Assembly: GCA_963663405.2 (NCBI GenBank)
Contig: CAXXSM010000140.1
Span: forward strand, 9,554 to 73,553
DNA length: 64,000 bases
DNA from: a bacterium
GTDB lineage: Bacteria > Hinthialibacterota > Hinthialibacteria > Hinthialibacterales > Hinthialibacteraceae
Direction: 5' to 3'
Shown here: positions 35,725 to 64,000 of the stretch, one piece after another
Layout of the letters: each line of letters begins with the position of its first letter
How positions within the stretch are numbered: the stretch's first letter is position 1
Made by a program: the position numbers and the translations under genes
Notes under the pieces: model-generated
Database searches by the model: none
What the model was told of the DNA's origin: nothing
Seen by the model: only the letters and a program-made list of their open reading frames with translations

Positions 35725-35733
35725 AGTTACTGT

Positions 35734-46587: not shown

Positions 46588-47265
46588 TTATGAATTCTTC
46601 GCGGTGATCTGGCTGTAGTCCAATCGGATTTCAATTCTCCGGTTGATTTTGGATTCGATTTTATCTTCGAGGGGCTGGTATTCGCCATAACCGATCGCGG
46701 AGATGCGATTCATTTCTAATTTTACATTTGTATTATCCTCTTGAGATAGTTGGTGAAACAAGCGGACAACCGCTAAAGCCCGTTCACTGGACAATTCCCA
46801 ATTATCCTCGTAGCGGCCACTATGGATAGGCAGGCGGTCTGTATGCCCTTCCACTTCAATTAACAACTTGGGATGACCATATTCGGTTAGAAATTGCGCG
46901 AGGTGGGTTAAGACTTCCCTTCCTCTTGGTTGTAGATTGGCTTCCCCTTTCACAAATACAATGTCAGCAGAGAAACGTAATCGTTGTAAACTGCCTTTTC
47001 TCTCTTCTGTAATGGCGCCTTTTTCAATGGCTTCTTGAAAGATTGAGTTTTCTCTGAACTGCCGCCAAAACAACTCTTGTTGCTGTTTTCGTGTGAGTTC
47101 ATCAAAAACCTGGGACAATTCCAAGAACTGCGCGACTAACATAAAGACAAAAAACAAAACGAGAGCCATGGAAATATCCGAAAAGACAGGCCATACATCA
47201 TCCGTGCTTGAATAGGCGCTGTCAATGAATGGATCGTGTCGATATCTATGGTTGCGTTTGCTCAT
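46588..47265 (-). CDS. MotB/OmpA-family stator subunit (ZorB-like)
   Basis: Single TM with a conserved Asp (VWPVFSDISMALVLFFVF); OmpA-C motifs IVFVKGEANL, IEVEGHTD, NWELSSERALAV, NRRIEI. Confidence 0.9.
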   Translation of the reverse strand: MSKRNHRYRHDPFIDSAYSSTDDVWPVFSDISMALVLFFVFMLVAQFLELSQVFDELTRKQQQELFWRQFRENSIFQEAIEKGAITEERKGSLQRLRFSADIVFVKGEANLQPRGREVLTHLAQFLTEYGHPKLLIEVEGHTDRLPIHSGRYEDNWELSSERALAVVRLFHQLSQEDNTNVKLEMNRISAIGYGEYQPLEDKIESKINRRIEIRLDYSQITAKNS

Positions 47266-47273
47266 GAAAACAT

Positions 47274-49130
47274 TTATCTTTTCGGTTTCAAAAATGTAAA
47301 TAGATTAGAAATTCTCTGTCCCCATCGTATGTTTTTCTCACGGATCGATTGAGTAAGAAGCAGAAGCGCTTGTGTTGTTTTTCGTAATTCCGCATGCAAT
47401 GAATCCTGCTCTTGATTGGTTTCAGAAGATTGTTTTGTTCGCGTGGATTCACTGATTGACGTTGACAATTCATTGGATGGCGCATTCGGAATGTTAGCAA
47501 GGTTTGTTTGATTTACATTCATTTCATCAACGCTGTCTTTTAATAGATTCCATGATTCGATTGATGTGGAATCACGATTGATCCGCTCTAAAATCTTGGC
47601 CGCTTTATCCATTTTCTTGTGTATCGCGATCATTTCTGTTTTGATTTCAATCAGTGGATTCACAATTACATTCGGGAAGACCGATAATTTGTTATTCAAG
47701 TTTTTCAGTGGGAAGTGCGCCGCTTGTTCTTCCAATCCTTTTTGCAAAGAATCAACATGTTCCCGGATTGATTCCACCGTGTGTGCAAGAAGCGCCGCTG
47801 GTGGACGAAATTCGGCAGTGAATCTATCTGATTGATCGGCCATCCACGCTTTCATGTCATCCAATCGGATTTGTACATCACGTATCGTAGTCTTTAAATC
47901 GGATAGATTCGAGATCCCCTCGTTTTGAATTTGTGATAAATTGACATCCATGTCAGAAGACGCCTGATCAATGCTGGATTGCAGGCGGTTCAGCGCAGGA
48001 ACAATTTGCTGTATTTGTTCTAGTTCTTTGCTATTGAATTCTGTAATTTGTGACCAGTGTTTCGCAAGTTCCTGCTCCAACACCTTTCCGATTGTTTTAA
48101 CGACTTCTAACCGGAGTTCACTTTCAGGTGTAATTTTCGCGATGGTATCATTGAGCTGATTGATACGTTCGCGCATAAAACCGAGTACATGATTTGTTTT
48201 TTCCGCGGCGTCAGAAAAATAACCGGCTGCGTGTTCTAAGCGATCGATGACTTCTTGTATATTGATTTGTCGATCCGCCGCAGTTTGTACAGCGGAGACC
48301 AATTGCACGCAGAGTTGGTTGATCGCATTGGATGTGCTTTCCACTGTTTCTGTGAAGGTCTTTTCCACTACTTGGCGGCTGACGGTTTCCACCATTTCTC
48401 GAATCGATTGCAGTAAATCATCATTATCCGGCGCCGCCAGTGGCACAATGGATGTAGTCAAGATCGTATCCACTTGTTTGAGTAAATGATTGTTCATCCA
48501 GCGGGAAGCGATTAAAAGCGGTGATAGAACCACTGCGCCGATGACTCCAAATAATGTGGTTGTAAAGGCCGTGCCCAATCCGGAAAGTGTATTTCGTAAT
48601 GGTTCACGCAGGTTTTCAATACTTGTGAGGGATTCGATATCAAAATATACATTTTGAATAGCCATCGTGAGACCGATCAATGTGCCGATCAGGCCTAATA
48701 AAATACACATGCGTTGAAACAATTGTAACAATCCTACAGGCTTGTAACGCGCAAGGCTTAATTCCACGACATCATCGACTAACCGGCGCGCAGAATGGCG
48801 ATCAAGCCGTTCAATCATTCGAATTGCATTTTTAAGGACAGGGACATGCCAACAGATTTTTCGCAATCGTGCAATTGTATCTTCTGTGCCGGAAGAAGTT
48901 GAATTCATTTTTGAAATACGGCTATGAATCCAACGGATAGCGGCGATCGTATATCCCCGCCATGAAAATTGAATGAGAAATAGGATAAATCCTATATCCA
49001 CTATCCAGCGGATTATAAAAATAATGTATTCCGCTTCAGCAGATAAAGAAGTGAAGATACTTTTTTGAAAGTCAATTGGCAAAAAAGAAAACAAAAAATC
49101 AGTCAGCATTGAACTGTATCCAGTTGACAT
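47274..49130 (-). CDS. MotA/TolQ/ExbB-family stator subunit with a ~400-aa helical C-terminal tail (ZorA-like)
   Basis: Three TMs including LLGLIGTLIGL and LSGLGTAFTTTLFG, then a long heptad-rich tail. Alternative start at ATG 49109. Confidence 0.88.
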   Translation of the reverse strand: MSTGYSSMLTDFLFSFLPIDFQKSIFTSLSAEAEYIIFIIRWIVDIGFILFLIQFSWRGYTIAAIRWIHSRISKMNSTSSGTEDTIARLRKICWHVPVLKNAIRMIERLDRHSARRLVDDVVELSLARYKPVGLLQLFQRMCILLGLIGTLIGLTMAIQNVYFDIESLTSIENLREPLRNTLSGLGTAFTTTLFGVIGAVVLSPLLIASRWMNNHLLKQVDTILTTSIVPLAAPDNDDLLQSIREMVETVSRQVVEKTFTETVESTSNAINQLCVQLVSAVQTAADRQINIQEVIDRLEHAAGYFSDAAEKTNHVLGFMRERINQLNDTIAKITPESELRLEVVKTIGKVLEQELAKHWSQITEFNSKELEQIQQIVPALNRLQSSIDQASSDMDVNLSQIQNEGISNLSDLKTTIRDVQIRLDDMKAWMADQSDRFTAEFRPPAALLAHTVESIREHVDSLQKGLEEQAAHFPLKNLNNKLSVFPNVIVNPLIEIKTEMIAIHKKMDKAAKILERINRDSTSIESWNLLKDSVDEMNVNQTNLANIPNAPSNELSTSISESTRTKQSSETNQEQDSLHAELRKTTQALLLLTQSIREKNIRWGQRISNLFTFLKPKR

Positions 49131-50371
49131 GAATGTGTTTTGAGCACAGGTAGATAAGCGATCGAATGATCCCGCCTGTTATGTATTGTGATAATATCGG
49201 TCCATAAATCCTGCGAAGGTCTACAGGGAAGATACAAGGTTGTTCGTATTGGATCAGAATCGTCCATTTCTACTTCTGTATTTTCTAATTCTGGTGGGAA
49301 ATAGAATAGTAAATCCATACCATCTCCACGAACATCATTAATGGATTTGACAAGAATAGAGACGATCTGATTGTCCGTATTCCAATTGATCAAAGGTGGA
49401 AAAATATTGAGTCTTTGACGCTTAGGGAATTGAATGATGCGCTTGCGATTTGTGATAATCGTTTCATCTGTTTCAACAGTTACGTTATAGGAAAATATAT
49501 CTGAGTCACGACCGCAGGAAAGTTCGATTGTATTAATCGGAGAAGTGTTAGACAATAATAAATCTTGTTTTATGTGCGTCTTTCCACCCTTTTTCCGTAT
49601 CCTCGCTTTAACAGGCCGTTCTCCGATTAATTTTAATCTTAACGTATATCGATCGAGATGCTCATCATCAAATTTATCCAACTGATGTTCTATCGTAACC
49701 ATTGGCGATTGCAAGAGAAAGACAATAGTTGTTTCGAGTTCTGGAATTGATAATCGGTAACGTATAGGTAAATTCGTTGTCGGTAAATCTGTATTCGTTG
49801 GATATCGCACTAAGAACGTATTTTTTGTAGTCTTATCACACTCAATATAGAGACCCAGCGGATTTTTATTAAGTAAATTCAGTAATAAAGGCTGTGGCAT
49901 TGAAATCAGAAAACCAGGATTAAACATAACATAACTTAAAATTCCTCGAGAATATAGATAAACATTATGCCGAATTGAGGGGAGAGGGCTTGATAGACGT
50001 TTTTCATTCGTAACAATTCCAATTTTTAGATCCCTTATTACTTCATCAAATCGCAGCCAAATCCCTTCCGTTGAGTCCCACTCGTATTGGATCGGATAAT
50101 CCTGTATATAGCCATTCCTATCTAAAATGTATTTACCTGCAATCCATCGATTTTTAGAGAGCGCTCCAATACAGAATTGACCATTTCCACCAGTTACCAA
50201 TGTTAGCTCAGAATGAGATTGGAGACGAACCTTGTATGTTTCGGATAGAGGCAATTTCGGTGGGATATGACCTAAAGGTTCTAGTTGTAAACGATCGATA
50301 TCTACGGGTGTGGCAATGACTCCCGAATTGGTCCAGATTGTTTCATTCAATGAAAAAGATATGTCATTCAT
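49103..50371 (-). CDS. Hypothetical beta-rich cytoplasmic protein, tightly linked to the MotA-like gene
   Basis: 422-aa ORF that overlaps the next gene; no recognisable motif, signal peptide or TM. Confidence 0.75.
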   Translation of the reverse strand: MNDISFSLNETIWTNSGVIATPVDIDRLQLEPLGHIPPKLPLSETYKVRLQSHSELTLVTGGNGQFCIGALSKNRWIAGKYILDRNGYIQDYPIQYEWDSTEGIWLRFDEVIRDLKIGIVTNEKRLSSPLPSIRHNVYLYSRGILSYVMFNPGFLISMPQPLLLNLLNKNPLGLYIECDKTTKNTFLVRYPTNTDLPTTNLPIRYRLSIPELETTIVFLLQSPMVTIEHQLDKFDDEHLDRYTLRLKLIGERPVKARIRKKGGKTHIKQDLLLSNTSPINTIELSCGRDSDIFSYNVTVETDETIITNRKRIIQFPKRQRLNIFPPLINWNTDNQIVSILVKSINDVRGDGMDLLFYFPPELENTEVEMDDSDPIRTTLYLPCRPSQDLWTDIITIHNRRDHSIAYLPVLKTHSCQLDTVQC

Positions 50372-50379
50372 GAGCGCAA

Positions 50380-51867
50380 TTATACTATCTCTACATCAGG
50401 TTTACGAAGAATTTTTTTGGTTGATCGCCAGTAGAATCCTCTGTGTATGACTCGTTTGATACGCCCATTTGTTTTAGGATCAGCCCAGGTTACTAATTGA
50501 TGTTGAGCAGGATTGAATGGCTCTCCATGAGAAGGTTGCATGATTTCAAGATCAAACAATTCGGCAATCTCCAGAAAATGATGAACAAGGGTAGTATAGA
50601 ATTCTTCGGCTTCTATTGTGTCCTGTTCCTGTTCTTCCCATTGATATACATAATTTAAAAAATATTTCTGCACGACGGTTGGAAGAAATTGGTTTTTCTG
50701 AGCGAGTGGTTTACGTGTGCGAATCGCTTTGGAAAATGCTTTGTCAATAATAACAAATATGTATTGCATGAATCCACTTTCATCACGAGTAAGAGACATC
50801 GCATGTCGATATTCTCCATGCTGATAAAGCAGTTCGCGATAATCGTTGAAATCCGATAAAAATTTTCCAAATTCTATCATTAAATCATCCGCAGACAGTT
50901 GAAAAGGCAATACAGGTCCGATATTGGAAAGAAATTCATACAAATTATCTCTAAAGTTTGTTACGAAGGAACTTGCGGATGGATTCACTCTGAGAAGTAT
51001 CATGATAGCGCCATTTTTTTGATCCACTTTGTTAAAGAATTGTATCGCAATATCAAAATCCTCCACATCGACGCTGCAATAATTCTGAATATCCTGTGTT
51101 TCCAATTTCCACTTGGCATTCATAAACTCAGTCAGATCGTTGCACTGCTCACGAACACGCTCTACAGGTGATTGCGCGCGAAACTGGAAAGATTGAGATT
51201 GATTGTCAGTTTTCATCAAAGAAATCGATTCAGATATAGGTTCAGGTTCTTCATGCTCTGCAGATGAATACCGATCGTTTACGATTTTCCCTGTAACTTC
51301 TGGATGTTGAGTAATAAGTTTTTCTAGAATCTGAGATAGTTTCTTCTCCCGGTTAAAAAAAATCCAAATCATAATAAACCAGGAAATCATTATAATGCAA
51401 ATAAGAATAGTAAATATTATTAAGTAAAAAGAAAAATCGGAAGTACCGGCTGTGTCGTAGTCAGTAGAATTATCACTTGGTACTTGTCTTGGCTCCGGTA
51501 ATGGTTTCAATTTATTTTCATTTATGAATATCAGTATAGGATAATAACCGGAAGGGATTCCATATAAAGCGTACGTCTTTGTATTCAAAACACACAAAGA
51601 TGGAAAAAGAGAGGATAAAATCGATGAAGGGACATTCAACCAAAAGGAACTTATATTATTCTGAAAATCTATGGTTGAAGATGAATTGATTATTAGAGAA
51701 GATATGACTGGACTCGGTGACTGTATTTCAGTATGGTTTCTTGCAGTATTATCGTGATTCTCAACTGCATAAGATTGATGGAGAAACAGAGGAATGAAGA
51801 AGAAAGAAAACAGGAAGCATAAATACATGATTCGAACAGTTTTTGTATACCCAAGCGATCTATACAT
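50380..51867 (-). CDS. Membrane protein with a C-terminal GrpE-like head domain
   Basis: Signal peptide, extracytoplasmic segment, TM (FYLIIFTILICIIMISWFIMIWIFF); C-terminus GEPFNPAQHQLV...GRIKRVIHRGFY...ILRKPDVEIV matches the GrpE pattern G-x-x-F-D-P-x-x-H...G-x-I-x-x-V...G-Y...R-x-A-x-V-x-V. Confidence 0.72.
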   Translation of the reverse strand: MYRSLGYTKTVRIMYLCFLFSFFFIPLFLHQSYAVENHDNTARNHTEIQSPSPVISSLIINSSSTIDFQNNISSFWLNVPSSILSSLFPSLCVLNTKTYALYGIPSGYYPILIFINENKLKPLPEPRQVPSDNSTDYDTAGTSDFSFYLIIFTILICIIMISWFIMIWIFFNREKKLSQILEKLITQHPEVTGKIVNDRYSSAEHEEPEPISESISLMKTDNQSQSFQFRAQSPVERVREQCNDLTEFMNAKWKLETQDIQNYCSVDVEDFDIAIQFFNKVDQKNGAIMILLRVNPSASSFVTNFRDNLYEFLSNIGPVLPFQLSADDLMIEFGKFLSDFNDYRELLYQHGEYRHAMSLTRDESGFMQYIFVIIDKAFSKAIRTRKPLAQKNQFLPTVVQKYFLNYVYQWEEQEQDTIEAEEFYTTLVHHFLEIAELFDLEIMQPSHGEPFNPAQHQLVTWADPKTNGRIKRVIHRGFYWRSTKKILRKPDVEIV

Positions 51868-51890
51868 AATAGAATCCTAAATAGAAGTAA

Positions 51891-53390
51891 TCATCCAAGT
51901 CTCACCGTAGGTTTGCGAATGGGATTGCCTTGGATCCGTTTGACTCCTCGTCTTACGATCGATTGAATACGGCCTGAGTTAGAACTCGATTCCTGTGCAA
52001 ATTCTTCCAGCGTATGTTGAAGAGGATCAAAAGTATCATGGATTTTTACATCCGTCAGTTCCATTCCCAGTGGTTTTAATAAAGAACTTAGATAATCCGT
52101 AAGGATCGGTGATAATTCGGGAATTGTGTTGCTATATTTCTTTTCTAAAATTTCAAGTTCATCAATATGTTCCATCACATCAACTTTCGCGATCCGATTC
52201 AATTCTTCCGTCAGCGTTTCGATAGAAATGTGTGAGGATTGAATTTCATGAATCGCATCCAATAGAATTGTATTATAAAAGGAAAATACATAGTGACGGT
52301 AGGCAATAACTGGGTCCAATCGATCGTTCGAAGGGATATCTTCTTTCCCTATCAATCCCACAATCGTATGATAATAATCCGAATGAAGAAACTCGTTATA
52401 TTTTTTGGGATTCTGATCAGTAAAATTAGGTATTTTTGTCACTCCAAACATGGCGTTGTATTTAGACTGGATCTGCTCGCGAAATCCCCCTACTTTAAAT
52501 TTGAAGGCGGAATGGGATTGTTCAATAGTTTGAATCGCAGGATTATCCGGCGAAAAAGAATTGATAAGCGTGTTAAACGCAATGAAAGCGGGATGATTTT
52601 CTAAGTCTGGAATCAAATTCAATTGCGCTTCCCGGATGCATTTATATTTATTAACAGAAAACGCACGTTTTACAAGTTCTATAAATTCCTGGTAATCCTC
52701 TTGCGCTTTACGGTGATCGCTTACAGACAATAAATCATGTTTAAGAGAACGAATTTCATTCTGAAGGATGCGATTGTATGTTTCACCAGTCTCAATGGTT
52801 GATAGTTTTGAAAAGAGTTTGTTAAATGATAATTCTGTTTTGGAAATGAATTCAACTACTTTGCTATGTTGATTGTTGAATTGATTCAGAAAACCTTTGT
52901 AGCTTACAGACAACGCGTTCAGTTGTTCTGATAGATATGTGAATTGATCCGATGAGTTTGTTGATGGAAATGAGATTATATTTTTTTGCTCTGACTTATA
53001 ATCAGATGTTGTATTCATGGATAAAGATATTTTTACTATATATTTGCGATCAATTGGATGTGGCCAAATTTGTAGATTAAAATGTACTTCATCAAAATCT
53101 TCCGGCTTTGATAATTTAATATAATATCTTGATTTGAAGATACCATTATAATAACTTAATGGACATTTTTGTTTGTTTTTGTTTAGGATAAAATGGCCAT
53201 CCACAATATTAAAATCATTAGTGCGTTGAATTTTAGGAATCAATTGTATATAGTTACTATGTTCGTCTGGGATAAAATCGATGATGCCTTTCTTAACGAT
53301 AGGAGAATTGTGATTTGCGCGTAAAATTTCATAAAAAATAACATATTCTCCTATTATTATTGTATTTTCATAACATTTCATTGGACGCAT
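51891..53390 (-). CDS. Coiled-coil protein with a C-terminal GrpE-like head domain
   Basis: Heptad-rich middle; C-terminus LGMELTDVKIHDTFDPLQHTL...GRIQSIVRRGVKR...IRKPTVRLG. Confidence 0.72.
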   Translation of the reverse strand: MRPMKCYENTIIIGEYVIFYEILRANHNSPIVKKGIIDFIPDEHSNYIQLIPKIQRTNDFNIVDGHFILNKNKQKCPLSYYNGIFKSRYYIKLSKPEDFDEVHFNLQIWPHPIDRKYIVKISLSMNTTSDYKSEQKNIISFPSTNSSDQFTYLSEQLNALSVSYKGFLNQFNNQHSKVVEFISKTELSFNKLFSKLSTIETGETYNRILQNEIRSLKHDLLSVSDHRKAQEDYQEFIELVKRAFSVNKYKCIREAQLNLIPDLENHPAFIAFNTLINSFSPDNPAIQTIEQSHSAFKFKVGGFREQIQSKYNAMFGVTKIPNFTDQNPKKYNEFLHSDYYHTIVGLIGKEDIPSNDRLDPVIAYRHYVFSFYNTILLDAIHEIQSSHISIETLTEELNRIAKVDVMEHIDELEILEKKYSNTIPELSPILTDYLSSLLKPLGMELTDVKIHDTFDPLQHTLEEFAQESSSNSGRIQSIVRRGVKRIQGNPIRKPTVRLG

Positions 53391-53400
53391 TTTATCAACC

Positions 53401-54421
53401 CTACTGCATTAATATAGGAAATTCAAAATAGTCTACAAAACGGCCAAACGAACCAGTCAGGCAAGTTTGTACACGCCCATCCATAAGGCGATGAGATTCC
53501 AGTACAACCTTTTCGGGAGCCATATACAATCGGCGCTTTTTTAGGTTTATGGTTTTAAGAGGATGCAATGCTATACCCGGATAGCCGAACCAAAATTCAA
53601 CAAACGGGATTACACCGTTGGAAGAAGTGAGAGCATCTATCCGGCCTCCTGTAATTGGATCTTCTTCATGAATTAAAGGCAGAAAATCCCACAATCCATG
53701 ACGAATACCAATCGCTCCATTACGACGGATCGATATTGTACTAAATCCACTACGAATTTCATCTAAATATAAGGAGACATTTTTGAGAGCTTGCTCCGTT
53801 GTTGAATCTAAAATGAAAGGTACAGAACTGGAAAGATCTCGAGAAAATACAAGAAAACGGTTATGCGCGTTCTCACTCGATTCATCCCGAAGTTGGTGTT
53901 GAATCACTGCTTCACTATGCAAATTATTATGCTGGACAGTAATCCATGACGCTTCAACTACACATTCCCGCTGGCGAAGAACGATAATGGAATCATTGTG
54001 ATTATTCTCCTTGATAGCGGCTAATGCAAATAATGGCGCGCCATCCGCGAAACAACACTCCCCCTTTCCAGCCCAAATGAGTCAGGAGTGAACTAAGGGA
54101 TTCTTGAGTCGATGTTGATACTCCAGTAGGGAGCATCATAACTAGCCAATCACTTTCATTCATTTGACGATTTTTTAGAGCGCGTGAAAAAAAGGGATGA
54201 AGAGCGGCGGCGATTTCGCTTGATGGTAATGTATCTATGAATTGCGCAGGATTTGAAATTACCACTCCTTCATAGGATGAGGGGGGCCACGGACCGCCAT
54301 CCCAAATCAATCCCTCTTCTGTTTTACGTCCAAGCCAGCTATCAGGAATGTGGCCGGAATTTCCATCGGAATCGGCCCATGCTGGATTTACGGGACAAAA
54401 ATCAAACACGAGTGTAACCAT
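53401..54421 (-). CDS. Degenerate Hsp70/actin-fold protein (one frameshift near 54050)
   Basis: ATG 54421 lies 7 bp after the Hsp70 stop. TLVFDFC...LVMMLPTG...TQESLSSLLTHLG; a frame change in the T run gives FADGAPLFALAA...SIIVLRQRECVVEASWI and joins ORF 53401..53922. Confidence 0.55.
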
Positions 54422-54428
54422 GATCGGC

Positions 54429-57400: not shown

Positions 57401-57644
57401 GGGGGGATCTCCATTTCAATCCACGCGCAGTGATGGATATACTGCCAGTATTTTCAAGCAGCAGATTGACGCCGATCTCCTCACTGCCCCGTATCCAGGG
57501 CATTCGCGGCCCTTCCTGCGGTTGTACACTTAACGTACGCAGCCTCCGGCCGCAAAATCCACAGAACGAGTCGGTCTCCGGATTGACCGGCCACTTCAAC
57601 ATGCAGGGACAATGCTCGACTTGGTTCTCTTTCATATTCCACAA
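54429..57644 (-). CDS. Atypical Hsp70-family ATPase with N-terminal Zn-ribbon and Ig-like domains
   Basis: CPC...FCGFCG at the N-terminus; ATPase motifs MGIDFGNTNS, FFKPKIG, SHPVRF..KQRLAL, FIDEAS, VFDFGGGTID, LGGE, AELLK, SGQSSRMPLI, KEAVAMG. Likely start ATG 57635. Confidence 0.9.
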   Translation of the reverse strand: MWNMKENQVEHCPCMLKWPVNPETDSFCGFCGRRLRTLSVQPQEGPRMPWIRGSEEIGVNLLLENTGSISITARGLKWRSPRPASEDERTIDFPRPVSLAPKSREIISLTIPLHENARLAELLTFHLLTGSEDRAESGVKVDPVQIPLKPPPRVDVQISGDFRLLRIADPKKGIQFNLVSLDRDLTLSHEENIVLHNIETNQTATVEREDISTRQLKVNLPIPIHVADLESFFSEGVTTRTVRLEVPIVEMGASVFTDTFTLHYIPKTEFEIYLELPEGITPRILKGCKRSFELWMKHHSRRVFSIDAIDVELPEHITGHGVYSAFIPNKPFPLMVDKAMESERLLFLGKITLDMTQWDSAGEKSEFRIHIRVDEIPEPSFTKSFPMEIVVCQIEWELPMGIDFGNTNSCVAIINDNNLPEMIPLPPLIQRKGCNKDNPIVVPTIVKYRAAGGFASEWESKEVEVEEVGGPALDALQASPQIGYKTITFFKPKIGLDFHHHFPFMPNVKNKTVDSIAYDYLKNLLTVTREETGYDYLHVILSHPVRFWTKQRLALRDALIKSTEASNINPNQLSVGFIDEASSVLLYYLVAGRYFESNSKARVPDEREIILVFDFGGGTIDMTLCEVTYDAVSERISIRHLDFDGTNDLGGEYLTEIIQKQLYRRAKNVANGREEEYQTTFPNGKNSNRREQNPSASNANTAFDARNDEFPIWSPDEDEEELLDLSELSTKSTVGNRAKSIQANPNTDWEESENEEEDAIIIPYSRIETLTQESGRYTNLATLNYWNLYWIAELLKIYIFTSGSTDEMNISVSGIEKKNPDSEPKRIQFFTDIVSKKDAIESQIKQALSGALEKAKTMIRNVKQMDSQCSLTKVLMSGQSSRMPLIQEMLRQAVLEANDGKPVEIVPLANIKEAVAMGSAIYGYMREYINVEMNRVSRVYIFLRGRIIGSKGYIPVIDRLTPLPAEAVCENFPLCRGKTVTLVESFINLQVSSNLITGKKDQEFRDIAKFQILPDGWTDEQIESARMKVILTRDEELRVTLEPNPSHGAELEPYSLWPPINACKDTILSDC

Positions 57645-57726
57645 GCGTTGATTTTTTTCACAGAAGGTCTCTTTAGTTTATGTTTTGTAATTCCTGACTG
57701 GGCGCTGTTGTATTGTCGAAAAAATA

Positions 57727-60700
57727 TTACTCTATGTGAGGATAATTCTCCTGTTCGATGTTGGAATCGGAAAATAAATTTGTATCCCGTGTTGTCTCCA
57801 TCTGCTGCGATCGGATTTCTTCAATGAACAAAGTATTAATCAATCGATCACCGAGTTCACGAAACCGTTTTTTCTTATACAGATTGGTCTCGTATTTCGC
57901 CAGATTCTCATTAATCACGGCTTGAACAATCTCAATACCGATCAACGAGATGACGTTCTTGATGCGTTCGATAAAGTCCAGCGACGCTTGTCCTTCATCC
58001 ACTAGCGCAAAGTTTCCAAGGTCCTTGTCCGCGTGTAAATTGACTTCCTCCGAGATGCCGTTTCGGCTGATGTAGTAATAGGTCACATCTCTTGTTTTCG
58101 CGTCCCGGTTTAAGAAACTCTGCGTCTCCAACTGCTCCCAAAAAAGATCGACGATATCCACCCAAAACGTGAGTTCATCGATGATTTTCCGCAGTTTCGG
58201 GTGATAGTGCAATGCGCCGATTTTGTGGGTGTAATGATTGGCGTAGGGAGAATGCGCCTGATTCTGCGCTTCAGAGCGTCCACCATGACGGAGCAAGTGA
58301 TCCAGGTCATCTGCAATCAGCCAATCCTCCAGCGATAAAGCGGCCGCTTCATCATAAAAAATCACCATGTTGTCCAACGTGCATTCAATGGTTTCAAACG
58401 AGGGCAGTTTGGGATCGATCGCATTCAATTGATTCTGCATTTCAACAAGACGGGATTTTGAATGACGTGGGCCTATGATCATATCCGGTTCGTCACATCC
58501 TTTGTTGGGCACTTCGCCTTGCGGGAACTGAAGCCAAGGGATGCAGCCACGGGCGACCTCGAGTTTGGTTTGATTGGAATACCGGTCGGTCTCCAATTCA
58601 TCGAGAATGCTGATCGGTTGCGCCGTGCGCCAACATTCGGCTTGATAATATTTGAGAAGCAGTTTTTCCGCTTCCTCCGCGTTTTTAGAGATGAACTGAT
58701 TGAAACTGATTCGTTCCATTCCGTCTTGCAGGAATTCCTGATACACATTGATATGGCGATGTTTATTTTTCACGACATTGGCGAGTTCTTCGGCGTCCGC
58801 GGCGAGCACGCCCTTCTTAGTCACCATCCGCATGCTTCCCAAATCTCTCTCCCGGATGATTTCATTCCAACGGTTCTGCAAAGCGGGCGCGACCTTGTTT
58901 TTCAACCGGTTGAAGCGGTCTCTCATCTGAAGACGAATCGAGGCGGTCTCTTGTTGATATTCACCTCCCACAAGGTTCTCTCCGAGAAACTCTTCATGCG
59001 CTTCTTCACAGATTTTCCGCATTACGGCGCCAGCGATATTCTCGATTTGTTGTTTGAGTTTCTCCGAGATATTATCAATCGCCCGTTCAATGTAATACCG
59101 CTGAACCGGCGCGCGGGCCATTAAAATCGATAGCCATAGGTCTTTGCAGACATCTTTGAACCGCAGAGAAATACCTCGTAAAGAGGGCCAGGGAACACTC
59201 AACGGCTCTACTTTTACGGGCAGTTCGTTGATTGTTTTTTGCATAAAGGCAGGGAGCAAATCGAGATATTTAACGATCTCTTCCACACTGCTCCATTGCC
59301 CCTCGGCGATCTCATTCGTATGACGCTCCGCTTTTTTCTGGATAGCGTCCAATAACTGTTTCTTTAATTTCCGCGCTTCGGCGAGAAAATGATTGTGCAG
59401 GGCGCCGTTCGGTTGCAACGCGTCGATAAGATTTACATTCCCTCCTTGTACATTGGGGAGCGTTAATTCGTTCTTTAGAAGAGAAAGAATCGCTTGCGCC
59501 GAATTGACAGAAGCGAGGGATAAGGCGGTATTCACCTGTTCGAGCGTATGCGTCAGGATATTGAACTCATTCACTTCCAGCAATTGACTGCGGATCGTTC
59601 CATAGATCTCTTCCCAGTCTCCTTCCGCGCACTTGTTCGCTTGATTCAAATTGCCTTCTTTCGTCCATTCATCCACAAGAGCGAGGCTCAAGTGACAGGC
59701 GGCGGCGGTGGCGATCATGAATTTAGGATAGAAAAAGCCGGACAGGCCGTGCGATTGAATCTGCTGAACGTACATTCCATTCTTTGAACGGCGTCCAATC
59801 TCTTCTGTGATTTCGTATTGCGCGCGCTGTTGATCTTTATAGGCCCGCACTTGCGGGACTAAATCTAAATAAAGTGATGTCGAAATCGAAGCATGCAACG
59901 CGCTCAGATCGTAATCCTGCCCGTTCCACGTAACGGATCGGATCCCGCTGTCATTGGACGGCGAGATAATATTCATAAAGGTATAAGGGCCTCGGTCATT
60001 CGGTTGGGGAGGAAAATTGGTGGAGTCATCCAATGGATGTTTGATATAGTAATGATGATCCCCGCTGGCCCAATAGTCATATTCAACCATCGCAGCCCAG
60101 CAGTTCATCGAACAGACAACATCCGAACGCTTGCGGCTCATGACCATGCTGCGGTCTACCACCGTAAACGTGCCATGCACGTAGGAATCATTGATCGCCG
60201 CGTCCAACAAGGCTTCCTGCGCCATATAGCCCACTTCCCAAAACGTGCCCGAGCAGGTTCCCCCGCAGAGAGAGCCGCAGATGTAAATTCGGAATGTCTG
60301 TTGGACCAGTTCTTCATCCGGACGCGGGATATTTTGGGAATCGTAATGCTGTTCCAACATGCGGATGGTTTCATCCCGTCCTCCGCGCGCGTTGTTGATG
60401 GCGGAGACTAAGGATTTATAGACACGTTCCCAGTTCGCCCATAAACAAAACCGTCCAGCCATCCGCCAGCCCCGCGCGCCTGATTCAAACGCCGTGCCTG
60501 ATGTCACTTCTTTATCCAGCCAATCGGACCAACCATCATGGAAATCCGGGCTTCGTGGATCAACTTTGCTTTTCAGTTGATTGAGTCCTTGGCGGCTGAC
60601 GGTGAGTGGAATTAATTGAAGCCTTTGCCAGGGCTTGTTCTGATCCGTGACATAAATATCCATTGTGGATGATGGACGGATGGAGAGCGTTTCGAGACTC

Positions 60701-60820
60701 AAAAAACGCATGCAAGGGCAAACCCGGCACGCCATATTCTTCAAACAACAGGCGGCGCACTCCTTGAATGATTTCCGTTCCCGATGTGCCGAGTCCGATG
60801 AAGACTGTAGGCATAACCAT
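57727..60820 (-). CDS. Tubulin/FtsZ-like GTPase (Tubulin_2 / FtsZl1-type) with a long helical C-terminus (one frameshift near 60715)
   Basis: RBS AAGGAG then ATG 60820: TVFIGLGTSGTEII; after an indel, RFLSLET...GARGWRMAGR...ICGSLCGGTCSG (tubulin signature variant)...NCWAAMVE; about 1030 aa in total. Confidence 0.88.
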
Positions 60821-60831
60821 AATAAATCTCC

Positions 60832-61192
60832 TTACCGCCTCTGTTTTTCCGCAGCCCGTACATAGTGCGAATACCTGGGATTAAATATGAGTTGAATTAA
60901 AAACACATCCAATAGAATGCACCCAATATATACCAACAATGTGGGCCACCAATCCCAGAAATTCTCCGTCGGTCCTAGTTTTCGAAACCAGAGGATGTAT
61001 TCCACGATCCCCGTAATCAAGCCCGCGAACATATGCAAATAGATCAGGTTGATGGTCCCATCGATAAGCGCTGGATTCCGGTGTGCCTTTTTTCGTTGGC
61101 CGTCCGCGTGGCAGTATCATTTCTAGAAGTAGAAACGCCACAACCAATCCACCGAAATACCATAGTAAAACAATCGTTACGTCCATATTCAT
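60832..61192 (-). CDS. Small multi-pass membrane protein (frameshift near 61040-61060)
   Basis: RBS AAGGAG; TM1 in ORF 60881..61192 and two further hydrophobic segments in ORF 60832..61038; ends 11 bp before the tubulin-like gene. Confidence 0.6.
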
Positions 61193-61221
61193 TCTCCTTC
61201 ACCCTGTCTGTTCCAGTGGCT

Positions 61222-62981
61222 CTATTGTATGTGGCCGTTCTTTTTGAAGGGTGGGCCAATCGATTTCAAAGATAACTTTCTTCGGTTTTGGTTGAAATGC
61301 GTCTTTCTTCTACAACGGGGATGGGATCGCTTGCCGTCGTTCCTGGGTGGAGGGGAATTGTCCACGCGGTACGCTGGTTTCGATTCATCCTCATCTTCAA
61401 TCTCATATTCCTCGAGTTCAATTTCCCGTTGATACGCGATATCATCATCCACAACTTCTACATTGCCCGAGAAGAATCCCCGCTTGTATTGTATCGACAA
61501 CGAATTCACTTTTCGATCGGGGAATTCCAATTCGTTGTTTATGATAATCGTATCTCCCCCATTCATCTCTACGGAATTTGATGCGATTTTATTTCCTATA
61601 TCACTAACGAGATAGCCTTTGATCACGATTGTTTTGGGAGGCCGTATTCTCCACTGGATGTATAAACCACCAAAAAGCGCAATAACAGCGATCACCACAA
61701 GCACAATCCAGAACCAGAATGGATTCACCGGCTGGAACTTGGCGTTAAATTGGCTTTTCGTTAGCGCCGATATACGTCCTGTCGGATCGTTGAAGGTAAA
61801 TTGCGTGGAAGCAGGCCATTCCCTTCTCTTCGATCGTAGCGAACACAAGCGAACCGGTCGCAGGAAGAAGCGTATCTCCTTTAAAGGCTAAAAAACCTTC
61901 CGCGATTATCCGCCCTTCATTATTGTGGAGACGCGCTTGAATCGTCGGAATAGGGACTTGCGCCTCAGGAGCTTTATTCACATAAAGCCCAATCGGTTTG
62001 GATTCGATCCGTCCGCCTCGCTGAAATAAGATCACTTCCGATTGTTCCACTTGCATGGTGACTTCACAAGGAGTCGGCGTTGTTGGAGGTTGTGTAGGAA
62101 TAGGTGTATTCGTTGGTGGAACCGGTGTTTTCGTCACTCGAACTGGCGTTGACGTATGCGGGGGAGCGGCCGGTATGACGGTCGGCATCAAGAGTTTCAT
62201 CATGCCAGATCCGGTCCGCCTTAATCATAATACGATGCGTGAAGGAAGGATCGGATGGAACGCATGGAATGACGATCTCAAACAACGCCTGCCGTTTTTT
62301 CTTCAAATTCTGGTGCTTGGTCACATACGCGTCGGTTAAATTTGGATCGTATCCTTCCGGCACGTTATCGGTGACCAACACTAGGTAGGTGTCATTGGTG
62401 TCTGGAATCATAGACTGTAACGCTCGTGGATGTTCGAACGCGTCAATCTGCGGCCGTACCCAATTTGTTTGCAGTCCCATGTAGCGAGAATCCTGGCGGT
62501 CCGGACGGGGTAGAAATTCCCGCAAAAGGGAGAGCCGGTCTCCACTGGGGGGGAGGATGCTCTCGTACAATGAATAACCATATCGTTCCCGGTTGAATAG
62601 AAACGCGGTCAGCAGCGTTTGATCGTCCACTAAAGGCCCAGCGGTTTCTTGCCGGGGAACATACCAGGTCCATTGTGGATCGTTGGCTCGTGGTTGTATT
62701 CCATGAAACAAAAGTGCGAATACCCGGTCATGTACAACCTGCAGTTCTTCATTACTCACCATCCAAACCAGCCTTGGAGGATTTATGTTTCGGTTGTACC
62801 GCTTGAACCATGCTCTGAGAGCAGTCCCCAAAGGAGCACGACACGCTTCTTGTAAGGTTGGGAGGATACATTGGATTCGGCGGCTGCGAGAAACATCGCC
62901 GTTATGCAGAAAGTGGAAAGCCATCCACCAACGCTCCCCATCCATTGTGTCCAAAGGTTCCCCGCCATTCTTTTTCATCAT
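61222..62981 (-). CDS. Exported vWA-domain protein with Pro/Thr linker, TM anchor and acidic cytoplasmic tail (several frameshifts; 3' end approximate)
   Basis: Fragments: signal peptide WLSTFCITAMFLAAAES; KKRVVLLW|DCSQSM (MIDAS DxSxS after an indel in the run at 62826-62829); YLVLVTDN; PTNTPIPTQPPTTPTP; TM FWFWIVLVVIAVIALFGGLYI; EIELEEYEIEDEDE. Confidence 0.65.
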
Positions 62982-62994
62982 AACCTCGGAATAA

Positions 62995-64000
62995 TTAAAA
63001 TCGTTTTTGGAACAATTGTTTTACCGTAGGGAGAATAAACCGTCCCTTCGACCAAATAGGCCCTCCAACGGCAGTATTCATCTGTTCGGGAATCGCGCCA
63101 AGAACCTGCGCTTTTTTCAATTGGAAATCAAATGTATAGAGTATTCCAGTATTTGGATGCGTTAGGAATAAATGATCCCCTTCAATATATGACCAAGGAG
63201 GGAATGCTTTAAAATTCTCTTGATAGGAAAAAATCTTAGGCTTTGGAATCACACCTTTTTGAATTAAATTAAACTCATCAAGGCCAAGAAGACACATCCG
63301 TTTTGGGCCGGAATAAATCACTTGATTGGTAAAACGGGTTCGAATCAATGGATTCCAAGCCCATTGTGGATCCATTCTTTCCGGATCTTCAAAAATATCA
63401 CTGGCGATCCAATCCGCCTTTTCCCATTGACAATTCCCCAAATTATCAATCGAATCCGAAAGCCCAATCGCGCTCTCTTCCCCAGCGAGAAAGACCCACC
63501 AGATTCCCTCCGGTGTCACAGCGGGGGAAAGCAGGCGCCCCGGATTTACCATTTGTTATTTGGGTATGTTCTTCCCGTATAAATTCTCCTTTTTCATCAA
63601 ACCAGGAGATAAAAACATGGCCGTTAACATGCGGCGTAACGATGGCGTATCCTTCTCGGCCGTTCTCTCGTACAGGAATATAGAGAGGAGATAAAATCCC
63701 TTCCGGTTTGACGTTCCACGTCGAAATCGTATTCACATTAAATTCGCTTCCTTCGATCACGAGCTTGTTTAAATCAATGGTGGTCAAACCGGAAATTGTA
63801 GCGATATAAATCCGCCGCAAGTCGGATTCCCCATTCGTCCACTGATTCCGGGCTACGTACAAAGGCGCCGCGTCCGGACACGCGGGATCGCTCAATGTGA
63901 CGGTCAAAGGTCTTTGCAGGTCCGGTTGAGGCAGCAACCGTAGTGACGCCATTCCGTTGATGAGATTAACAACCCAAAACTGCTAACATCCGCGACTGGC
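62995..64000 (-). CDS. Probable beta-propeller (PQQ/BamB-like repeats) protein, 5' end beyond the window, frameshifted
   Basis: ORFs 63446..63952 and 62995..63552 join near 63535; repeated short-strand motifs (LSPLYI, LSPAVTPEGIW, PPWSYIEGDHLFL, GGPIWSKGRFIL); stop 13 bp before the vWA gene. Confidence 0.5.

Follow-up and report, generated by a model that had tools for sequence, protein, structure and literature searches.

A conserved operon combining a ZorAB-like motor, a tubulin-like protein and a private Hsp70/GrpE set, with a proposed role in envelope conflict

Background

Zorya systems, which join ZorAB to ZorC/D, ZorE or ZorF/G, are among the closest described relatives of the locus presented here. 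That ZorAB is the Zorya core, as the first-pass annotation of this DNA stated, agrees with the available part of PMC11946911. As in Zorya, the MotA of our locus carries a cytoplasmic tail several hundred residues long, its MotB combines an Asp in the TM helix with an OmpA-type peptidoglycan-binding domain, the best PADLOC models are ZorB3 and ZorA1, and soluble partners are encoded beside the motor. Unlike Zorya, it lacks the Zorya effectors (PADLOC); in their stead are a vWA membrane protein, a pair of Hsp70-fold proteins, adaptors with GrpE tails and a tubulin-like GTPase. Its MotA tail has about 400 residues, whereas that of E. coli ZorA has about 500, going by the deletion 223-729 given in the same part of PMC11946911. 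The present system is known from its genes, and a defence role for it is only proposed.

A different likeness is offered by FtsZl1 operons (Makarova and Koonin 2010, PMC2875224), whose main text confirms that Tubulin_2/FtsZl1 genes lie beside vWA, GTPase and OmpA genes, as had been stated. In both cases a Tubulin_2 protein with a long C-terminal extension adjoins a membrane vWA protein and an OmpA-domain protein, the distribution is patchy, and planctomycete and other versions include protein kinases. However, that main text contains no Hsp70, GrpE or MotA (DnaK has 0 occurrences, and “chaperone” is used solely for a DnaJ-like Cys-rich domain), and it reads the OmpA proteins as porin-like, whereas here the OmpA-domain protein is a stator B subunit.

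The available part of the article on GAP1-N2 DO-GTPase systems (Kaur et al. 2020, PMC7159879) describes a tubulin and membrane vWA theme, a theme of HSP70, GrpE and a second truncated HSP70, N-terminal Zn ribbons on switch NTPases, and kinase variants. HSP70 and tubulin are treated there as assembly components of conflict systems, which are read as membrane-proximal and NTP-driven. In that part of the article, the tubulin, HSP70 and kinase themes are non-overlapping and occur mainly in Actinobacteria and Firmicutes, whereas they are combined here; similarly, MotA, ExbB and TolQ are absent from its main text, while our locus has a MotAB/ZorAB-type motor. Neither the defining DO-GTPase nor the P-loop GTPase typical of FtsZl1 operons was found here, as the Walker A motif is absent from every operon protein.

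The literature thus yielded parts only (FtsZl1 with vWA and OmpA; tubulin with vWA, or HSP70 with GrpE), and none of the papers we found covers the set as a whole together with a motor of the ZorAB type. The earlier interpretation is supported in part, in its gene labels and in its view of the full set as undescribed. The Hsp70/GrpE association is not wholly new, because the available part of PMC7159879 already contains the tubulin plus vWA and the HSP70, GrpE and second-HSP70 themes. The combination of a ZorAB-like motor, a tubulin-like protein and a private Hsp70 set is undescribed, and its function is only proposed.

Organization of the operon

The window, the whole stretch of 64,000 nucleotides analysed, ends at 64000 with the end of contig C140. 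In the ORF listing, checked against intact orthologs, 46588-64000 contains 11 genes, all on the minus strand; at least 11 with tight gaps had been noted before. From the MotB side, the intergenic distances are 8, -28, 8, 23, 10, 7, 82, 17, 29 and 13 bp. The genes are listed below in their order from the contig end (G-numbers denote related genomes).

62995..64000 (-): cytoplasmic Zn-ribbon/beta-propeller-type protein, C-terminal two thirds; breaks near 63935 and 63540
61222..62981 (-): vWA-TM membrane protein; three ORFs, breaks near 62822, 62100 and 61830
60838..61192 (-): small membrane protein; frame break near 61057; matched by tblastn in two frames
57727..60820 (-): Tubulin_2/FtsZl1-type GTPase, about 1000 aa; Pfam Tubulin_2 2.1e-22
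54429..57644 (-): Zn-ribbon Hsp70; Pfam HSP70 2.5e-8
53401..54421 (-): mini (degenerate) Hsp70, about 340 aa; frame break near 54050; identified by the fold of its G006 ortholog
51891..53390 (-): soluble GrpE-tailed protein; GrpE-type C-terminal beta domain from tail alignment A7
50380..51867 (-): membrane-anchored GrpE-tailed paralog; Pfam GrpE 4.5e-4 over residues 427-494 (20.4 bits, below the cut-off of 25.8)
49103..50371 (-): beta-rich protein, mostly beta; 23-24% identity to its G006, G019 and G014 counterparts
47274..49130 (-): ZorA-like MotA/ExbB channel subunit; Pfam MotA_ExbB 1.9e-6 (28 bits, cut-off 22.9); PADLOC ZorA1 1.1e-9
46588..47265 (-): ZorB-like MotB; Pfam OmpA 1.8e-13; PADLOC ZorB3 1.1e-24, nearly full length

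Within the window, Pfam directly supports OmpA, MotA_ExbB, HSP70 and Tubulin_2 and, below threshold, the GrpE tail of the membrane-anchored paralog; the remaining labels needed orthologs. All the gene labels given previously were borne out, with a strength that varies among Pfam, PADLOC, ortholog and fold evidence.

Motor proteins

MotB consists of one TM helix with Asp30, a residue kept in the window, G006 and Poribacteria, followed by an OmpA-type peptidoglycan-binding domain. MotA has three TM segments (hydropathy) and a cytoplasmic tail of 404 residues (P+G 4.5%, charged residues 25%), and its residues 114-379 align with positions 87-361 of the 683-position PADLOC ZorA1 profile. Scores against the ZorA and ZorB profiles are modest; on the C-terminal domain, general MotB/OmpA models do about as well. 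Throughout the window lineage, the gene for the beta-rich protein lies immediately upstream of MotA; in the window, the end of its frame and the start of MotA overlap by 28 nt. This protein matched no family in Pfam, PADLOC or NCBIfam and nothing above 0.80 in an atlas search, and its AF2 model (pLDDT 42.7) is unusable.

Hsp70 and GrpE proteins

The Zn-ribbon Hsp70 begins with a Zn ribbon (CxC...CxxC) and a beta-rich N-terminal region of ~380 aa, followed by the NBD and a short beta-rich C-terminal region; the helical lid is absent. Aligned with the DnaK that the genome retains elsewhere as a normal copy, its NBD keeps the phosphate-1, phosphate-2, catalytic Glu and adenosine motifs, and these intact motifs predict an ATPase-competent protein. 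Ig-like Pfam matches were obtained for the Poribacteria Hsp70 ortholog only, and the Hsp70s of Poribacteria and of the Desulfobacterales MAG L022 also match MreB_Mbl weakly.

The mini-Hsp70 has no sequence match in Pfam or PDB, and the earlier label of a degenerate Hsp70 was confirmed by fold in its G006 ortholog, whose AF2 model reaches a pLDDT of 86.2 and a pTM of 0.86. All 40 of the 40 Foldseek PDB matches listed are Hsp70-family proteins or Hsp70-containing complexes (E 1e-12 to 1e-7), including DnaK, BiP, Hsc70, mortalin, Ssb, RAC/Ssz1 and Hsp110:Hsc70, and VIA-align gave Z 14.7 across 303 residues; for the NBD by itself, Z was 13.6 with an rmsd of 4.5 and 222 residues aligned. The protein combines a pared-down NBD with a substrate-binding-type beta sandwich, and the absence of ATP-binding motifs predicts that it is catalytically dead.

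Of the two GrpE tails reported previously, that of the membrane-anchored paralog has the sub-threshold Pfam match listed above and that of the soluble protein follows from alignment A7, in which a His and a Gly are invariant (...DP..H...G...) across 15 tails. The soluble protein has no Pfam match in its window copy, and its G006 ortholog matches Pfam GrpE at 0.002. The paralog has two hydrophobic segments (hydropathy) and lies within a low-GC stretch; it has no tblastn match in relatives and does not adjoin the operon in G006, G019 or G014.

The Hsp70-GrpE pairing that had been suggested was modelled with two GrpE tails and the Hsp70 NBD. This complex scored 0.64 against 0.20 for the best of three controls and passed a mark that 58 of 80 solved complexes reach, as against 2 of 110 mismatched pairs, a pass that may reflect likeness because DnaK-GrpE complexes are solved. 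Partner pLDDT was at least 66, and the runs share at least 70% of contacts. The GrpE beta domain contacts two separated NBD stretches, residues 384-434 and 629-783 of the modelled chain; in keeping with the solved structures of DnaK with GrpE, we take these to lie in NBD lobes I and II. Moreover, Hsp70 and GrpE-tail fusions occur at L017 and L025, and the Hsp70 C-termini of P0006, P0008 and P0009 resemble the GrpE-type tail by eye, while P0007 ends before the tail.

The NBD with all nucleotide-binding motifs and the GrpE-type C-terminal beta domain are shared with canonical DnaK-GrpE. In contrast to it, the system here has neither a helical lid nor a DnaJ partner in the operon, its Hsp70s bear large N-terminal Zn-ribbon/beta-rich or kinase modules, and the GrpE domain forms the last ~70 residues of proteins of 350-560 residues, one of them membrane-anchored.

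Tubulin, vWA, small membrane and beta-propeller proteins

The tubulin, the only Tubulin_2 gene in the genome, has a long C-terminal extension and 50-52% identity to its G006 and G014 orthologs over ~975 residues. Its first ~39 residues, comprising the glycine-rich nucleotide loop, lie in another frame after a break near 60710; these 39-40 residues, read in frame -1, are 78-85% identical to orthologs.

The vWA-TM orthologs of G006 (588 aa) and G014 (578 aa) match the window in three frames and have a signal peptide, a divergent vWA domain, a Pro/Thr-rich linker, a beta-rich region, a TM helix and a cytoplasmic tail. This protein has no Pfam or PDB sequence match; its vWA label is sustained by MIDAS-like residues (D37, S39, S41, T169 and D170) invariant in 12 sequences from two lineages and by an hhalign match (probability 63%, E 6.9e-5) to a same-genome profile of 16 Pfam-confirmed VWA_2 domains, in which DxSxS and TDG are aligned. 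The window-lineage and Poribacteria vWA-TM proteins match at 94.7% (hhalign). Orthologs of the small membrane protein have 131 aa and 2-3 TM helices (hydropathy), with a 50% hhalign match to the Poribacteria counterpart.

Intact orthologs of the beta-propeller-type protein in G006 (516 aa) and G014 (504 aa) match 62995..64000 in frames -2/-1/-2 (tblastn), and because the contig ends there, ~167 N-terminal residues including the Zn ribbon are missing. Neither the window nor the G006 protein has a Pfam match; the beta-propeller label comes from the acidobacterial positional counterpart in L027 (DZR and PQQ_2 4e-23). That counterpart matches the Poribacteria one at 86.5% (hhalign), and the window-lineage protein gives no profile signal to either.

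Distribution in other genomes

The Hsp70-like gene is present in four of the 41 related genomes (G000, G006, G014 and G019), the same four have MotA and the 37 others do not; of 121 Poribacteria sampled, 18 carry a Tubulin_2 ortholog and 16 MotA, with tubulin on the same contig within 10 kb in 16/16 MotA carriers, tubulin only in two and MotA only in none, counts that overstate independence because carriers within each lineage are kin. The Poribacteria pattern could represent one clade with vertical inheritance. Their gene order differs, with MotA-MotB first, and is stable across about 14 species loci. L022 encodes a ZnR protein, a small protein, Tubulin_2, a kinase-Hsp70 fusion, two GrpE-tailed proteins (tails at 31.9 and 30.8 bits, cut-off 25.8) and, at the locus edge, MotA. 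A CHAT-TPR protease heads the acidobacterial version, and the N-terminal domain of Hsp70 is swapped between Zn-ribbon/Ig and protein kinase.

In G014 the set is split, with the genes from beta-propeller to mini-Hsp70 on C104 and those for the GrpE-tailed protein, beta-rich protein, MotA and MotB on C179. Since both blocks are internal to contigs >60 kb, both modules are kept though unlinked, and the GrpE adaptor goes with the motor module. Ortholog identity is very uneven: MotB (57-58%) and the tubulin (50-52%) are much better conserved than the GrpE adaptor (19-29%) and the beta-rich protein (23-24%). The tubulin query found no match in plasmids, and none of 30 viral-contig loci with distant Hsp70s has any other component. 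A chance mosaic, which the first-pass annotation had equated with a lack of co-occurrence elsewhere, is contradicted by the set being found together in three lineages. The gene set is a real, conserved and rare two-module system.

Proposed function

Alongside the observed gene identities, conserved co-occurrence, Hsp70-GrpE fusions and modelled GrpE-tail/NBD interface, we infer a stimulus, a series of coupling steps and a role in conflict or defence. The reading we favour, tentatively and a little short of an even balance, is a conflict system that senses the envelope: its proton-driven stator would gate a switch based on Hsp70 nucleotide exchange, and this switch would control a tubulin-like polymer. 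Module B would comprise the ZorAB-like stator, the GrpE-tailed adaptor and the beta-rich protein. Module A would be a membrane-proximal assembly set of the extracytoplasmic vWA protein with its TM anchor, the small TM protein, the Zn-ribbon beta-propeller, the Tubulin_2/FtsZl1 GTPase, the putatively ATPase-competent Zn-ribbon Hsp70 and the predicted dead mini-Hsp70. By analogy with the Zorya mechanism, as given in the available part of PMC11946911, an envelope disturbance (phage, another invader or wall damage) would lead MotB to engage peptidoglycan, and proton flow would turn MotA and its tail. The tail would act on the GrpE-tailed proteins, and these would set off the exchange of nucleotide by the private Hsp70. 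Cycling of this Hsp70, in which the mini-Hsp70 would serve as a partner or a decoy, might then release or reshape the tubulin-like GTPase, which would assemble at the membrane beside the vWA/TM proteins, so that the site is sealed, walled off or remodelled.

Several observations point toward conflict: the patchy spread (4/41 and 18/121), the uneven ortholog divergence, the swapping of Hsp70 N-terminal domains and the CHAT-TPR protease of the acidobacterial version. Against it, PADLOC on 10 window proteins recovered no nuclease, toxin, other recognised effector or ZorC/D/E/F/G, giving one match of 0.004 beyond ZorA/ZorB, and the window neighbours are pyruvate:ferredoxin oxidoreductase, NDH-2, rubrerythrin, heparinase and PP2C. 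The flanks are not defence islands; 10 proteins of four other loci, either flanking or accessory, gave PADLOC matches only to TPR models and, weakly, to PDC-M43B (one match, 3.3e-9). It also counts against this reading that FtsZl1 polymerisation has never been demonstrated (Makarova and Koonin 2010, PMC2875224), as do the modest ZorA and ZorB scores, the kinship of the carriers within each lineage, and the negative results for plasmids and for the 30 viral-contig loci.

Alternative explanations

A housekeeping or stress machine for membrane or envelope remodelling, devoid of a conflict role, would use the stator for energy or wall anchoring, the tubulin-like GTPase to shape the inner membrane and the Hsp70 set for assembly and recycling. 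A membrane-remodelling role was proposed for FtsZl1 operons by Makarova and Koonin (PMC2875224), and every component here is membrane-bound or plausibly membrane-proximal; the missing toxic effector, the metabolic flanks and the stable gene order in Poribacteria agree with such a machine. We nevertheless consider it somewhat unlikely: for a core function, so restricted a presence among the relatives and Poribacteria sampled would be unusual, the adaptor and beta-rich protein diverge fast while domains are swapped, and the best profile matches of the stator are Zorya ZorA and ZorB. Quite improbable, in our view, is a trans-envelope adhesion or surface-motility apparatus like the myxobacterial Agl-Glt gliding machinery, which combines a vWA adhesin with a cytoskeletal filament and a motor of the TolQR/MotAB type. 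The MotAB-type motor, the cytoskeleton-family GTPase, the actin-fold ATPase with its weak MreB_Mbl matches and the exported vWA domain on a Pro/Thr-rich stalk recall this machinery; however, a vWA protein with a single inner-membrane anchor would be periplasmic in a diderm rather than at the surface, Pfam identified nothing in the operon as an outer-membrane component, and gliding machines are not known to have a counterpart of the GrpE/Hsp70 parts.

That the cluster has no function in this genome, being either a remnant in decay or a group of unrelated genes that adjoin by chance, is barely plausible. Such a reading would draw on the about eight frameshifts that break five of the 11 genes within roughly 10 kb (tblastn with intact orthologs), while the remaining 46 kb of the window has mostly long intact ORFs, and on the low-GC stretch at 50-54 kb (GC 0.36-0.37), which suggests a foreign insertion. 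The conservation of the set in three lineages speaks against both versions, and decay is countered by the open frames of the long genes (3.2 kb of Hsp70, 2.9 kb of tubulin, MotA, MotB and both GrpE genes). The broken frames are most likely assembly errors, because contigs of public runs have a 1-base indel within 5 nt of six of the eight break points. Among these indels are those at 63538 and 63939 in the beta-propeller-type gene, at 61057 in the small membrane protein gene (deletion in runs X2 and X3), at 60714 in the tubulin gene (deletion in X2) and at 54050 in the mini-Hsp70 gene (deletion in X1 and X2). Apart from 54050, run X1 has 0 mismatches to the window over 7.6 kb.

Operon organization and assembly quality

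The assembly comprises 8.4 Mb in 170 contigs, and the window is the final 64 kb of contig C140, with position 64000 at the contig end. Within 46588-64000, the ORF listing places every real gene on the minus strand, and alignment with intact orthologs gives a count of 11 genes, spaced by 8, -28, 8, 23, 10, 7, 82, 17, 29, and 13 bp. The first-pass annotation had proposed a co-oriented operon of motor, tubulin, Hsp70, GrpE, and vWA genes, and this is confirmed by ORFs, Pfam, PADLOC, and orthologs.

Pfam matches of operon proteins in the window
46588-47265, minus strand: OmpA (MotB), 1.8e-13
47274-49130, minus strand: MotA_ExbB (MotA), 1.9e-6
50380-51867, minus strand: C-terminal GrpE match (membrane-anchored paralog), 4.5e-4, 20.4 bits, slightly below the cut-off of 25.8
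54429-57644, minus strand: HSP70, 2.5e-8
57727-60744, minus strand: Tubulin_2, 2.1e-22

When the relatives' orthologs are aligned to the window, their matches switch frame near 63935, 63540, 62822, 62100, 61830, 61057, 60710, and 54055, and short homopolymers adjoin several of these eight sites. Outside the operon, the ORFs of the window are mostly long and unbroken, and the other Hsp70 genes of the same genome are intact. Logan contigs from four public sequencing runs (X1, X2, X3, and X5) were aligned to window 53001-64000, and differ from it by 1-base indels at 54050 in X1 (otherwise identical across 7.6 kb) and X2, at 60714 in X2, at 61057 in X2 and X3, at 62806 and 62826 in X3, at 63538 in X5, and at 63939 in X3 and X5. 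These indels lie no more than 5 nt from six of the eight inferred breaks, 54050 being the only break site covered by a run resembling the window's own strain and the other sites being covered by strains 90-98% alike. The frame breaks of the operon are probably assembly errors. Because the run contigs carry indels near six of the eight breaks, we regard the natural operon as unbroken and use the orthologs of G006, a related genome, as stand-ins.

Elsewhere in the window, two pairs of long same-strand ORFs show overlaps, of 212 nt (19336-20479, minus) and 62 nt (22019-26849, plus), which may represent further assembly frame errors. The GC content falls to 0.36-0.37 at window 50000-54000, compared with 0.47 for the genome, in a stretch that includes both genes for GrpE-tailed proteins and a portion of the mini-Hsp70 gene; a second low-GC stretch (34001-36000, 0.365) contains a 347-aa ORF without a Pfam family (34636-35679, minus). 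Scans for promoters (32, versus 36.8 in shuffles) and terminators (14, versus 16.5) showed no excess.

Conservation and phylogenetic distribution

In the 41-genome set of relatives, the Hsp70-like gene is found in G000, G006, G014, and G019, and MotA is found in exactly the same four. The operon of G006 is entirely intact and identical in order, without the membrane GrpE paralog, and a 12.9-kb contig of G019 covers the end of the tubulin gene through MotB in the same order as the window. The G014 set is split between two contigs, with the genes from the beta-propeller to the mini-Hsp70 on C104 and the GrpE-tail, unknown, MotA, and MotB genes on C179, each block lying in the interior of a contig that exceeds 60 kb. 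Because of this split, we distinguish two modules, each kept when unlinked, with the GrpE adaptor accompanying the motor.

Close homologs of the operon Hsp70 are very rare: a collection of 5.8 billion proteins contains five at 37% identity or more, including the query. A pattern scan for the Hsp70 subfamily, using one genome per species, returned 178 relatives; among the best 80 of these 178 loci, which were retained, 19 carry a Tubulin_2 gene, and in another two, fragments of tubulin lie where the contig ends. The Poribacteria version follows the order MotA, MotB, ZnR-propeller, vWA-TM, small TM, Tubulin_2, and ZnR-Ig-Hsp70, continuing with a 410-aa protein, two GrpE-tailed proteins (one membrane, one soluble), and two further proteins, and this order is kept in about 14 species loci. 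Within a sample of 121 Poribacteria, tubulin is present in 18 and MotA in 16 (tubulin only in 2, MotA only in 0), and in all 16 MotA-bearing genomes the tubulin gene shares the contig with MotA and lies no more than 10 kb away. For the mini-Hsp70, beta-propeller, and unknown proteins, hhalign gave no link between the window lineage and Poribacteria, and their equivalence across lineages is judged from position and, for the window-lineage mini-Hsp70, also from fold.

Versions exist in other lineages as well. The Desulfobacterales MAG locus L022 encodes a ZnR protein, a small protein, Tubulin_2, a fusion of an N-terminal protein kinase to Hsp70 (L022:7976-11728, plus), two GrpE-tailed proteins, and a protein related to the accessory Poribacteria protein p860, with MotA at the locus edge. 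An acidobacterial version (L027) has at its head a 1217-aa TPR-CHAT (caspase-like) protease (963-4616, plus), and MotAB was not seen on the examined part of its contig. The operon tubulin had no match on plasmids in the collection searched, and 30 loci with distant Hsp70s on viral contigs contained other components in 0 of 30 cases. The possibility that the operon is a chance mosaic, raised in the first-pass annotation, fails because the gene set co-occurs in relatives, Poribacteria, and the Desulfobacterales MAG; it is very likely a real, conserved system.

Two local features of these loci were also recorded. Behind the acidobacterial CHAT protease come a sigma-70-like protein and a Zn-ribbon/B-box/TM2 protein. 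The Poribacteria locus L017 (G042:C1:5687331-5693144) carries tandem Tubulin_2 copies with internal stops (two TAA and one TAG), which could reflect duplication with decay or assembly errors.

Motor pair and preceding protein

MotA matches MotA_ExbB at 28 bits in Pfam (cut-off 22.9) and ZorA1 at 1.1e-9 in PADLOC. With three TM segments and, after the last of them, a 404-residue tail of low Pro/Gly content, its sequence predicts a channel subunit of MotA/ExbB type whose cytoplasmic tail is long, as expected of a Zorya ZorA. MotB matches ZorB3 at 1.1e-24 over residues 14-213, nearly its full length, and its Asp30, conserved across the window, G006, and Poribacteria, sits in the TM helix; the predicted architecture, a single TM helix with Asp plus a peptidoglycan-binding domain, is that of ZorB. 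ZorB3 and ZorA1 are the best PADLOC models of the two genes. The MotA ortholog of G019 is divided into two ORFs in a frameshift-like manner (L012:7094-8921; G019:C83:7187-8573).

The protein encoded before MotA (49103-50371) belongs to no family in Pfam, PADLOC, or NCBIfam and has no ESM atlas match above 0.80. A search for homologous proteins returned the query alone, and its AF2 model, built from 3 sequences, has a pLDDT of 42.7.

Chaperone components

The operon Hsp70, which scores above the Pfam HSP70 cut-off, has an actin-fold nucleotide-binding domain (NBD) that retains the phosphate-1, phosphate-2, catalytic Glu, and adenosine motifs in alignment with the genome's own DnaK, and it carries a long acidic insert. 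Approximately 150 residues after the NBD align loosely to the DnaK beta domain, and nothing aligns to the helical lid.

The second Hsp70-like protein, of 340 aa, has only 8 representatives among 1.84 billion. Its AlphaFold model from 7 sequences (pLDDT 86.2, pTM 0.86) matches full-length DnaK, BiP, and Hsc70 with a Foldseek E of 1e-12 and a VIA Z of 14.7 over 303 residues, while the NBD alone gives a VIA Z of 13.6 (rmsd 4.5, 222 aligned). As modeled, the protein is a pared-down Hsp70, composed of an NBD remnant and a beta sandwich, that has lost the ATP-binding motifs. An ESM atlas search gave DUF5716 as a lead, in 29 of 30 matches at about 0.91. The pieces of this gene had no match in Pfam, PADLOC, or NCBIfam, and profile searches of its alignments A2 and A3 against PDB sequences gave nothing below E 0.1.

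The GrpE likeness of both GrpE-tailed proteins is confined, by alignment, to the last ~70 residues, and orthologs or analogs exceed the Pfam threshold at L022 (31.9 and 30.8 bits), L027 (32.6), and L037 (31.8). Hydropathy indicates that one of the two window paralogs is membrane-anchored (50380-51867); no counterpart of it was found beside the operon in G006, G019, or G014. Hsp70 fused to a GrpE-type C-terminal tail was recognized by eye in the metagenomic proteins P0006, P0008, and P0009, and such fusions also occur in two Poribacteria (L017:8948-12442 and L025:8930-12559). A complex model of the window Hsp70 NBD with two soluble GrpE tails scored 0.64, against 0.20 for the best control. It thereby passes a mark that 58 of 80 solved complexes attain, compared with 2 of 110 mismatched pairs; its partner pLDDT is at least 66, and no less than 70% of contacts are shared between runs. 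Since solved structures of DnaK-GrpE complexes already exist, this pass may stem from likeness to them.

Upstream genes

The first gene (516 aa in G006) encodes an N-terminal Cys-rich Zn ribbon without a signal peptide. Its positional counterpart in the acidobacterial locus combines a double Zn ribbon with a PQQ-type beta-propeller (PQQ_2, 4e-23) and is linked to the Poribacteria counterpart at 86.5% probability by hhalign, which gave no profile signal between either of them and the window-lineage protein.

The second gene is characterized by a signal peptide, a Pro/Thr-rich linker, and a TM helix. Its D-x-S-x-S and T-D motifs, read from orthologs in which they are invariant, the window copy being frame-broken at the N-terminus, resemble the MIDAS residues of a vWA domain. 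An hhalign comparison of its N-domain profile with 16 Pfam-confirmed VWA_2 domains from the same genome gave 63% and E 6.9e-5 with the MIDAS residues aligned. The protein had no match in Pfam or among PDB sequences, and a profile search of its alignment A5 against PDB sequences yielded nothing below E 0.1. These sequence features point to a probable, very divergent vWA protein.

The third gene encodes 131 aa with 2-3 TM helices. The Tubulin_2 protein, the sole one in the genome, is matched more strongly in G006 (E 5.1e-31) than in the window. The six upstream ORF pieces of the window returned nothing from Pfam, PADLOC, or NCBIfam.

Comparison with known systems

The similarity to Zorya noted in the first-pass annotation was checked with PADLOC and extends to the ZorA/ZorB-like pair, with no other Zorya protein. 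The effectors (ZorC+ZorD, ZorE, and ZorF+ZorG) were absent both from 10 window proteins and from 10 proteins that accompany or flank the system at other loci. Because an effector was sought and not found, the operon is not a Zorya member; it joins Zorya-type stators to FtsZl1/HSP70 conflict-type modules.

Makarova and Koonin 2010 (PMC2875224) described FtsZl1 with vWA, P-loop GTPase, and OmpA proteins, and their main text does not mention Hsp70, GrpE, or MotA. Tubulin_2 and OmpA-family proteins are both present here, the latter as the MotB/ZorB-like subunit, but the divergent P-loop GTPase of the FtsZl1/vWA operon is not. Walker A is absent from the operon proteins of the window, G006, and the Poribacteria genome G041, apart from a low-complexity match in the Hsp70 linker of G006 and two further ones in the accessory Poribacteria p860, and Pfam and NCBIfam identify no GTPase family among them.

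The accessible text of Kaur et al. 2020 (PMC7159879) describes tubulin+vWA, HSP70+GrpE+second HSP70, and kinase themes in DO-GTPase/GAP1-N2 systems as non-overlapping accessories, mostly in Actinobacteria and Firmicutes, and does not mention MotA, ExbB, or TolQ. The tubulin and HSP70 themes, separate in that text, are merged here; the DO-GTPase is missing (no Walker A), and a ZorAB-like motor is added. The second Hsp70 here also keeps a beta sandwich, whereas the form in the same text is an NBD only. We found no description in the literature of a MotAB/ZorAB motor with Tubulin_2 and Hsp70, and the combination does not appear in the available portions of PMC9871819, bioRxiv 10.1101/2024.07.22.604496, or bioRxiv 10.64898/2026.10.19.760177; the supplements of PMC2875224 and PMC7159879 may list such neighborhoods. 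The novelty initially claimed appears to hold for the motor+tubulin+Hsp70/GrpE combination as a whole, but not fully for the Hsp70/GrpE association, a theme that is present in the accessible text of PMC7159879.

Proposed mechanism and biological role

According to the available part of PMC11946911, the Zorya ZorA5B2 complex is a proton-driven motor whose ZorB domains bind peptidoglycan upon envelope perturbation, and whose long ZorA tail relays the signal to soluble effectors. The input may be the same here, with the ZorAB-like motor sensing envelope perturbation, and the output would consist of NTP-dependent assembly proteins instead of nucleases. The GrpE-tailed adaptors, one of them membrane-tethered, would couple the working of the motor to nucleotide exchange on the private Hsp70, whose cycle would govern the tubulin-like GTPase beside the vWA/TM proteins.

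We advance this mechanism, together with a role in conflict, tentatively and at somewhat less than even chances. A conflict role fits the patchy spread of the system, the uneven divergence of its proteins (MotB keeps 57-58% and tubulin 50-52%, whereas the adaptor falls to 19-29% and the unknown protein to 23-24%), the swapping of Hsp70 domains, the CHAT protease of the acidobacterial version, and published accounts, PMC7159879 among them, that interpret tubulin and HSP70 as parts of conflict systems. Against it, no recognized effector was found, the flanks examined are not defense islands, and in the collections searched the system was seen neither on plasmids nor on viral contigs. An envelope-remodeling machine is the principal rival, which we consider less likely, and the remaining alternatives are minor.

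A more specific version can be formulated, in which the ZorA-like tail of a proton-driven rotary stator, by rotating or engaging, gates GrpE-type exchange on the dedicated Hsp70, which licenses FtsZl1 assembly at the membrane. Such a chaperone switch over a cytoskeletal polymer would constitute a fourth, effector-less class of Zorya-like immunity. This proposal is speculative and rather improbable; if true, the entry site would be walled off or repaired instead of the DNA being cut, and FtsZl1 would gain its first function. To our knowledge, no function has been known for FtsZl1/Tubulin_2 proteins since 2010, and the Zorya motor has been known so far solely as a nuclease trigger. A conserved gene set now connects the two, suggesting that ZorAB-type stators are general envelope sensors with differing outputs, here a tubulin-like GTPase under a private Hsp70/GrpE cycle. 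Should the coupling be real, it would amount to a prokaryotic signaling chain from motor to chaperone to cytoskeleton. Testable parts are Asp30 of MotB, the ATPase motifs of the Hsp70, the GrpE tail, and the glycine loop of the tubulin, and intact versions are available in several genomes.

Neighboring genes

A cNMP-binding PP2C (SpoIIE-type) phosphatase gene (45336-46544, plus) converges on MotB, with 43 bp between them, and kinase/PP2C pairs accompany related systems in the accessible text of PMC7159879. Its candidacy as a system member was dropped, since tblastn gave no match around the G006, G014, and G019 loci. In G014, the product of the second gene downstream of MotB (L118:5121-6251, minus), 376 aa long, matches the PADLOC candidate PDC-M43B at 3.3e-9 over residues 276-360, the sole match to the PADLOC defense library in any flank examined.
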